DNA of 64,000 bases from Escherichia coli (GCF_001677475.2 NZ_CP015229.1); one strand, 5' to 3'; positions 17,304 through 17,915 are shown, counted from the stretch's first letter. Numbers and translations are program-made. The notes: a model not told the origin generated them from the letters alone.

Positions 17304-17915
17304 CCACACGCGGTGCTGATTATACGGTACATCGTGTTAACCGAGAAGCTACCCACCAGCAAGGCAAAATCTTCTGCTAAAAAATGACATATGGCCAGTC
17401 GTCTGGAAAGCATGAAATTTTACAAAAATGGAAAATGAAGATTTTTATTGTGCTGGTGGGTAAAAACAAAAAGCGCCCCGTTGCCGGAGCGCCCTTGCGA
17501 ACAATTAACCTACTGCGCAAAAAAATGAATCTGTGCAGGGGGATTATATCAACCGTGTGACGAAGCGCCACAATTGCCGGATAACAGGCAAAGAAAAGGC
17601 CACCCGCTACGGTGGCCCTTCGACACAAGCTACACGTTATCCCCAACGCATGAGCGTCGCCAACAATGCCACATTTGCGGCTGGTGGGCAATGTGATCAG
17701 TGTGCTGGCTTGCTGGTGGGCTATTCCTGCTCTTTGGCCTTGCGTTGCTTTAGTGCTGCACGAGCTAATCAATCATTGTATATGAGGCGTGGAATCTTTT
17801 TTTCATCACTCCTGCATACACGCTCATTACTGACGTGTTCATTGCTGATGCAATTTCCCAGGAGGAAAGCAAATAAAAACAAAGAGCCAAGCCAGTATAG
17901 TACTTGCTGCATAAG

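Follow-up and report, generated by a model that had tools for sequence, protein, structure and literature searches.

Temperate phages that lack a recombination (Rec) module are already known to be enriched in Chi, the octamer GCTGGTGG that is recognised by RecBCD of Escherichia coli (PMC5041463). The best described are the Chi-rich lambdoid phages of the LLS class (Zheng, Casjens, Davidson, Amundsen & Smith 2025, PMC12315714; earlier Bobay et al. 2013, PMC3784561). Chi occurs once per 1.86 kb in phage LLS and once per 1.9 kb in P1 and outnumbers every other octamer in each of them, while the 1008 sites of E. coli K-12 correspond to one per 4.6 kb (PMC12315714). For phage-inducible chromosomal islands (PICIs) and other satellites no report of such an enrichment was found, and the literature on Chi or RecBCD in these elements yielded nothing specific. 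Capsid-forming PICIs (cf-PICIs), with EcCIEDL933 as the prototype (bioRxiv 10.1101/2022.09.08.507074), are 10-18 kb in size and possess an integrase, regulation/replication and packaging modules (bioRxiv 10.1101/2025.02.11.637232). The locus considered here, positions 17,304 to 17,915 of a stretch of 64,000 nucleotides from E. coli (GCF_001677475.2, NZ_CP015229.1; in the following the window), contains four Chi octamers and is part of a cf-PICI inserted into a prophage. On balance, and with some reserve, the three octamers on the plus strand are regarded as working Chi sites belonging to a selected, one-strand-biased Chi enrichment of a cf-PICI that has no recognisable Rec module or RecBCD inhibitor. 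The local triplet itself appears to be mostly a product of history, combining a deeply conserved site (Chi2), an often-conserved one (Chi3), and a lineage-specific one (Chi1) at the 5' end of a conserved open frame that is situated downstream of alpA.

Exact matches to the octamer on the plus strand start at positions 17452, 17680, and 17712. The three same-strand sites of the preliminary description were thereby confirmed, with the first one shifted by a single nucleotide from 17451, but a fourth copy in inverse orientation had been overlooked (Table 1). All four copies read GCTGGTGGG. Neighbouring sites among Chi1 to Chi3 are separated by 228 and 32 bp inside the open reading frame (ORF) discussed below. 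Their 3' flanks are GTAAAAA for Chi1, GCAATGT for Chi2, and GCTATTC for Chi3; AAAA at flank positions 4-7, as in Chi1, is of the preferred type, and the other two flanks are outside the contexts tested (PMC5041463). In the whole window, 28 Chi sites (23 plus, 5 minus) were counted, compared to 2.7 expected from dinucleotide-preserving shuffles, none of which gave more than 9. If the 23 plus-strand sites are placed randomly in 64 kb, three within 261 bp are obtained with P = 0.076, and for all 28 sites four within 360 bp with P = 0.012. If about the average density of K-12 is assumed instead, with ~10 sites on one strand or ~14 on both in 64 kb, the corresponding values per 64 kb window are 0.007 and 0.0007. 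The window is clearly enriched, and the triplet is within chance for such a window. It is real, yet as a cluster unremarkable for DNA this rich in Chi, and clustering alone is weak evidence.

The element carrying the segment is a cf-PICI by size, integrase, alpA, replication and packaging genes, and by the absence of tail and lysis genes. Its packaging module gave matches to Phage_capsid, Peptidase_S78, Phage_portal, HNH, Terminase_4, and the ATPase and nuclease of TerL, and a weak match to Phage_connect_1. YlcI, two Icd-like domains, and a DUF4222 protein are encoded as well. Scanning of the island ORFs revealed neither tail nor lysis genes, and a tail module could not be accommodated in the small unassigned ORFs, given their low number and short length. 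Lambdoid early genes were likewise absent from these ORFs, which identifies the element as a satellite and not as a lambdoid phage. Searches of the island ORFs against Pfam, NCBIfam, and PHROGs recognised none of Exo, RecE, Beta, Erf, Sak, Gam, or Abc2, but only SSB; several small ORFs and two ORFs on the minus strand were left without any assignment in these scans. By BLAST, the Chi segment and its relatives were detected in 927 of 5426 complete E. coli genomes, in a conserved neighbourhood consisting of integrase, AlpA regulators, sometimes BRO/Ant, the Chi segment, YlcI/YnfO on the opposite strand, Icd-like, DUF4222, and primase/helicase. No match to the segment was obtained in the phage collection with BLAST in either near or distant mode.

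Chi is frequent throughout this island. Twelve sites (9 plus, 3 minus) are present in 15.2 kb, one per 1.27 kb. When synonymous codons were permuted within the island genes, 1.29 plus and 0.25 minus sites were expected, compared to 8 and 2 observed, and the plus-strand count was reached in none of 1000 permutations. In ten related cf-PICIs, the mean was 0.89 Chi per kb with 74 plus to 42 minus sites. Chi was also the most frequent octamer in 241 kb of dereplicated related sequence (0.49 per kb at 46% G+C; 64 plus, 54 minus). A satellite without recognised Rec functions and with Chi far above codon expectation fits the idea that recombination-less elements accumulate Chi (PMC12315714). The main rival to the favoured reading holds that the octamers are incidental, that is, by-products of sequence maintained for other purposes: the open frame linking alpA/bro to an Icd-like domain, minus-strand terminators and the 3' end of ylcI, or a regulatory RNA or DNA site in a 40-bp block around Chi2, with no selected role of RecBCD. 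The roughly six-fold enrichment over codon expectation across the island argues that Chi itself is favoured, and thus against this explanation.

The gene order HNH, TerS, TerL is typical of HK97-like cos phages. Judged from this order, cos would be located between 27312 and 27460, with packaging proceeding rightwards from TerS. According to the rule known from lambda and restated for LLS, the left end is covered by terminase, so that the right end is where RecBCD enters before moving left (PMC12315714). By this rule Chi is active on the top strand, which is the plus strand of the window, and Chi1 to Chi3 would therefore be in active orientation, as would 9 of the 12 Chi sites of the island for entry at the presumed right cos end. 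A free double-strand end on satellite DNA, whether the right cos end after terminase has cut a concatemer, a rolling-circle tail, or a break of any kind, would allow RecBCD to load and to move leftwards along the plus-strand map, so that it would reach 5'-GCTGGTGG-3' from the 3' side. At Chi, which is cut at a frequency of 10-40% per passage (PMC5041463), the enzyme would nick a few nucleotides 3' of the site, degradation would halt, and RecA would be loaded. DNA to the left of Chi would be spared and could be repaired or used for recombination-dependent replication. If recognition at a single site is taken as 30%, the three sites within 270 bp together would bring it to ~65%. An origin of the Chi orientation in bidirectional replication from the iterons at 21.3-21.6 kb was considered and rejected for the triplet, which is on the wrong side for it.

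The triplet had been proposed to protect the DNA of the island from one end. Active orientation, given a right cos end that is itself deduced from gene order, and the lack of a recognised RecBCD inhibitor are in line with this proposal, whereas position, clustering statistics, and the supposed non-coding nature of the region are not. A special end-protecting role is not supported, since the triplet is internal, with distances of about 5.3-5.6 kb to the left cos end, as presumed, and of about 9.7 kb to the right one.

Relatives were collected in two sets, 120 IMG/VR loci obtained with a 20-mer adjoining Chi2 and 80 loci obtained through the Icd motif only. Chi2 is found at a fixed position in nearly all relatives with the N-terminal unit of the ORF. 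Among loci retrieved with the neighbouring 20-mer it was kept in 124 of 127, and in most of them (75 of the 127) it is the single Chi within 900 bp around it. Chi1 was detected in about 12 of these 127 loci, Chi3 is conserved in a large subset and present also where Chi2 is lost, and the four-site arrangement of the window is common to 23 loci. In one lineage (L134) Chi2 is replaced by TCC GGT TGG and Chi3 kept, and such block replacement accounts for the loss of Chi2 in ~20% of homologues, a point in favour of an incidental octamer. AGGQ and LLVG are the peptides encoded by Chi2 and Chi3 in the loci where the DNA was read, and one or both occur in all 107 carriers of the N-terminal unit among 120 protein-cluster representatives. 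In the 56 distinct loci found via the Icd motif alone, at least one plus-strand Chi was present in the ORF region of 54. The sites in this region are distributed 75:0 between plus and minus strand, compared to 183:219 elsewhere in the same loci; counted by position there are about five distinct plus sites and no minus site, raw counts being inflated by relatedness. Furthermore, Chi1 to Chi3 occupy three different codon phases, and a repeated peptide motif therefore does not explain them. Retention of AGGQ or LLVG by every homologue with the unit, the uniform orientation, and the three codon phases all count against incidental sites. In favour of them, invariance in the block around Chi2 extends to nearly every position and is not confined to the eight of the octamer. 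Within Chi2, the codons GCT (25 of 25 Ala) and GGT (31 of 31) are invariant, and the first base after Chi varies (GGG, GGA, GGC).

The polarity of Chi was also followed further along the related elements. From 500 to 2500 bp to the right of Chi2, in the region of icd and small ORFs (18413 and 19854 in the window), Chi is almost always on the minus strand; raw counts there are 75:0, 26:10, 32:2, and 34:9 per 500-bp bin. From about +2500 onwards the sites are mostly on the plus strand, and polarity thus switches along the element.

The segment had been described as non-coding without a convincing ORF. This was not confirmed: Chi2 and Chi3 are located inside a frame of 323 codons, whose last 48 residues correspond to the Icd-like domain NF033153 (E = 5e-19). 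A protein search with the frame returned 2016 homologues, many of which are annotated at NCBI as Icd-like proteins of 280-470 aa and align over the whole frame with 42-90% identity. In 90 distinct sequences from the Chi2 block to the Icd motif, 386-2052 nt in length, the plus frame through Chi2 contains 0.8 stops on average and is fully open in 88%, whereas the other two plus frames have 14-16 stops and are never open. The distance from Chi2 to Icd is a multiple of three in 78 of the 90, over more than 35 distinct lengths. Where the unit follows directly after alpA, an in-frame ATG as well as a Shine-Dalgarno sequence is provided by each of several unrelated upstream contexts, such as TAAAGGGGAGCATATG ACA CAT AAA ACA AAG GCG ACC. 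In some relatives, the long frame begins with a BRO-N domain.

Ratios of nonsynonymous to synonymous polymorphism (pN/pS) in the plus frame were 0.77 in the Chi unit, 1.04 in the stretch of the ylcI-icd promoter, and 0.19 in the Icd domain. Over ylcI, values of 0.49 and 0.46 were obtained for the two strands, which is uninformative for the coding strand because the third codon positions of both coincide. For the Chi unit, 0.77 on the plus and 0.32 on the minus strand are contradictory or noisy. It is concluded that selection holds the frame open and in phase with Icd, and that the peptide upstream of Icd is hardly constrained. The frame may represent translated read-through from alpA across the ylcI region, which may couple induction of alpA to expression of icd and replication genes while silencing ylcI. 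The strongly maintained frame, with its few stops and its lengths in multiples of three, fits the view that the octamers are incidental, but a peptide under weak or no constraint (pN/pS 0.77-1.04) means that protein function does not explain the conserved nucleotides. The chance level of clustering and the terminators treated below also speak for an incidental origin, which is nevertheless regarded as clearly less likely than working Chi sites.

In the window, the beginning of the long frame is interrupted. A run of seven A residues (17519-17525) contains one more A than in relatives, which leads to a TGA codon at 17526-17528 and severs the first 26 codons. Chi1 is located in this severed N-terminal piece, with which the long ORF starts in relatives and in which Chi1 is there read as C-W-W. 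The A7 run with TGA could be due to an error in sequencing or to an inactivating mutation, or it could be a site prone to slippage. A small peptide starting inside the block, MPHLRLVG…, was also considered; it was rejected, being stopped after 10 codons in some lineages and lacking a Shine-Dalgarno sequence.

Several observations weigh against the reading of the octamers as selected, working Chi sites. Most synonymous sites flanking Chi2 are as invariant as those within it, and its conservation can therefore not be credited to Chi itself. On the map opened at the presumed cos site the plus-strand sites are found at about 1.8, 5.3, 5.5, 5.6, 8.7, 8.9, 9.7, 13.0, and 14.2 kb of 15.2 kb, spread evenly and without clustering at the right end. 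Those at 26346, 25112, 21816, 21078, and 20850 are nearer to the presumed entry end than the triplet, so that five same-strand sites would be met earlier and the triplet is not the first line of protection; its grouping, as calculated above, reaches only P = 0.076. The strand bias of the family is modest, with 64% plus in the cf-PICIs and 64:54 in the dereplicated set, compared to 20:3 in LLS. In the flanking chromosome GC skew is positive and Chi is distributed 3:0, the plus strand thus apparently being the leading strand, and chromosomal selection on a long-resident element could produce the same orientation. Finally, no measurement of RecBCD dependence was found in the literature for any PICI.

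The immediate surroundings of Chi2 suggest two related roles for this one site. On the right side of GCTGGTGGGCAA the sequence diverges into six or more unrelated continuations, which begin 5-9 nt past Chi, and in three loci found by protein similarity (L131-L133) the left flank differs too and GCTGGTGGGCAATG is retained. Chi2 could be a selected recombination signal of the satellite, fixed in position and always in one orientation in a universal linker downstream of alpA, where it would switch RecBCD and recombine left (integration, induction) with right (immunity, replication, packaging) modules. The junctions 5-9 nt 3' of Chi would then be footprints of recombination primed by the Chi nick, and a 'self' signal of the host would serve satellites in two ways, for surviving RecBCD and for driving their modular evolution. 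A role of this kind is considered unlikely. In a related reading, Chi2 would mark a hotspot in the linker at which RecBCD, Chi, and RecA shuffle int, alpA, and bro on the left against ylcI, icd, and replication genes on the right. The start of the continuations is close to the nick positions 4-6 nt 3' of Chi (PMC5041463), the left flank of L131-L133 differs as well, the block joins differing integrases, replicases, and neighbours, and cf-PICIs are known to vary in the gene downstream of alpA (bioRxiv 10.1101/2025.02.11.637232). On the other hand, independent lineages are few, the common core of 12-14 nt is too short for RecA-dependent exchange, and the junctions also coincide with minus-strand gene ends, from which an identical picture would result. 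A junction hotspot appears quite improbable.

On the minus strand, ylcI is directed toward the Chi segment, and its transcript would end at two predicted intrinsic terminators, T1 and T2. For each of them, none of 200 shuffles reached a comparable fold energy, and the stem of T1 occurs in two compensating versions, GGCCACC…GGTGGCC and GGCGACC…GGTCGCC. Good minus-strand terminators with a compensatory stem variant are a further point for incidental octamers. They also raise the possibility of a small RNA. Between the end of the ylcI operon and T1 there are 95-107 nt, which could form an RNA derived from the 3' untranslated region, with a seed, CAUUGCCCACCAGCCGCAAAUGUGGCAUUGUUGG, in the conserved 5' part and Chi as its complement. 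The layout is typical in that the 5' part is conserved, the linker of 25-45 nt is variable, and the terminator hairpin is followed by a U-run; the hairpin contains a compensatory GC-to-CG pair, and the unit begins right after minus-strand stop codons. Nevertheless, a small RNA is very improbable at this place. Scanning 17250-18250 against Rfam with E values up to 10 revealed chance terminator-like matches only, the full stretch of 146 nt is not unusually structured (z = -1.2), and in the 5' hairpin covariation does not go beyond changes on one side. Moreover, unit lengths differ by multiples of three and the plus frame is maintained, pointing to the plus strand. The only real RNA family detected near the segment by Rfam is C4 (18652-18739).

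Directly after ylcI, an ORF of 47 aa with a hydrophobic N-terminus (MQQVLYWLGSLFLFAFLLGN…) is present on the minus strand (17769-17912). Downstream of it, at 17720-17768, an apparent leftover C-terminus of a second ylcI-type gene (…QRKAKEQE*) was noticed.

Table 1 Features of the window in and around the Chi segment (nt positions of the whole window)
Feature	Position	Strand	Remarks
Chi1	17452..17459	+	exact GCTGGTGG; 3' flank GTAAAAA
Chi2	17680..17687	+	exact GCTGGTGG; codons GCG GCT GGT GGG CAA = A-A-G-G-Q
Chi3	17712..17719	+	exact GCTGGTGG; codons TTG CTG GTG GGC = L-L-V-G
Fourth Chi	17353..17360	-	inverse orientation; shared by a subset of relatives
Conserved ~40-bp block around Chi2	17653..17693		…CCAACAATGCCACATTTGCG, GCTGGTGG, GCAATG; flanks lineage-dependent on both sides
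323-codon open frame	17533..18504	+	contains Chi2 and Chi3; runs antisense through ylcI and the ylcI-icd promoter region
26-codon fragment	17448..17528	+	MCWWVKTKSAPLPERPCEQLTYCAKK; N-terminus of the long ORF in relatives
ylcI/ynfO-family gene	17916..18140	-	74 aa; NF041551; ribbon-helix-helix-like by inspection
T1, intrinsic terminator	17594..17621	-	hairpin of -19.6 kcal/mol, then UUUUCUUUG
T2, intrinsic terminator	17469..17496	-	hairpin of -20.4 kcal/mol, then UUUUUGUUUUU
cf-PICI-type satellite	14857..30043	+	~15.2 kb; bounded by 11-nt repeat CTGTGTATTGC; inside prophage terL
Integrase gene int	14822-16111		
Two AlpA genes	16077-16652		
BRO-N domain gene	16707..17303	+	left neighbour of the Chi segment
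C4-type antisense RNA	18652..18739	+	Rfam RF01695, 72.3 bits; upstream of second Icd-like domain
AAA_25 helicase	19927-21336		
Iteron-like repeats	21332-21553		just after AAA_25 helicase
SSB	21787-22212		
HNH endonuclease	26872-27312		
TerS	27460-27957		

The satellite interrupts terL of an HK97-like prophage in the nuclease domain. The ATPase and the start of the nuclease are encoded at 13689-14882 and the remainder of the nuclease at 30130-30855, so that a functional TerL of the prophage would be possible only once the satellite excises. The same layout, a truncated terL followed by an integrase, was seen in E. coli Z1324SEC0014 (L001). Outside the island, the prophage DNA up to 52.5 kb (1-14850 and 30101-52500) is likewise rich in Chi and strongly biased, with 11 plus and 2 minus sites. 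Several of its plus-strand sites are located in the 12 kb to the left of the HNH-TerS junction of the prophage, the would-be right end of its mature DNA; such a pattern has been described for phage LLS.

Within the island, the iteron-like repeats comprise a direct repeat of 54 nt (21332-21385 and 21500-21553, 78% identical) with AAAAGTGGGG motifs that abuts the AAA_25 helicase gene and is probably the replication origin of the satellite. Between the replication and packaging modules, two minus-strand ORFs of 118 and 157 aa (22478-22834 and 22841-23314) gave no match in Pfam or PHROGs; in this position cf-PICIs reportedly carry immune systems. The Icd-like domains (NF033153) at 18355-18504 and 18815-18945 flank the C4 RNA, and the second one is part of an ORF (18497-18964) that overlaps the C4 gene.

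If the Chi sites work as proposed, cf-PICIs and related elements could be grouped with LLS and P1, which rely on recombination by host RecBCD and Chi instead of blocking RecBCD. Their density of about one Chi per 1.1-1.3 kb would rank with the highest described for any DNA, and satellite yield would be predicted to fall in recB or recC hosts or upon removal of Chi. This is also relevant to the question of how satellites evade a nuclease with the role of an immunity hub. In addition, the 'gene of unknown function downstream of alpA' corresponds to a conserved open frame running antisense through ylcI into an Icd-like domain, which may be part of the induction switch.

Comparison with described systems revealed the closest resemblance to the LLS class. 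In both cases a temperate element of E. coli with HK97/lambda-like cos packaging genes has no recognisable recombinase, exonuclease, or RecBCD inhibitor. In both, Chi density is well over the host average with Chi as the top octamer, and most sites are on the strand expected to be active for entry at the right cos end. The element described here differs in being a cf-PICI satellite of ~15 kb and not a lambdoid phage. It is denser in Chi, with about one site per 1.1-1.3 kb compared to one per 1.86 kb in LLS, and its strand bias is weaker (9:3 here and 74:42 in relatives compared to 20:3). The clustering at the right end that is seen in LLS and many phages of that class is absent from the satellite.

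Engineered Chi arrays, the work of Dabert, Ehrlich and Gruss in 1992 and, for tandem Chi, of Kuzminov et al. in 1994, are said to protect linear or rolling-circle DNA from RecBCD. As in such arrays, closely spaced Chi sites of the same orientation would raise the odds of switching RecBCD before it passes. The arrays adjoin an exposed end, whereas the triplet is internal, is preceded by five Chi sites, and lies inside an ORF.

With EcCIEDL933 (Alqurainy et al., bioRxiv 10.1101/2022.09.08.507074; He et al., bioRxiv 10.1101/2025.02.11.637232) the satellite shares size, the gene order int, alpA, regulation/replication, capsid, protease, portal, connector, HNH, TerS, and TerL, the lack of tail and lysis genes, and, presumably, cohesive-end packaging. 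These papers contain no discussion of Chi or RecBCD, and the term RecBCD does not occur in the 2022 text. They describe attB sites in the chromosome, whereas the present copy is integrated in terL of a prophage. Finally, a C4-family RNA (RF01695) together with Icd-like domains just downstream of the Chi segment is reminiscent of immI of P1 and P7, in which the C4 antisense RNA is followed by icd and ant. The arrangement found here differs in having two Icd-like domains and no ant gene thereafter, and in that the first Icd-like domain forms the end of a long upstream frame overlapping ylcI in antisense.

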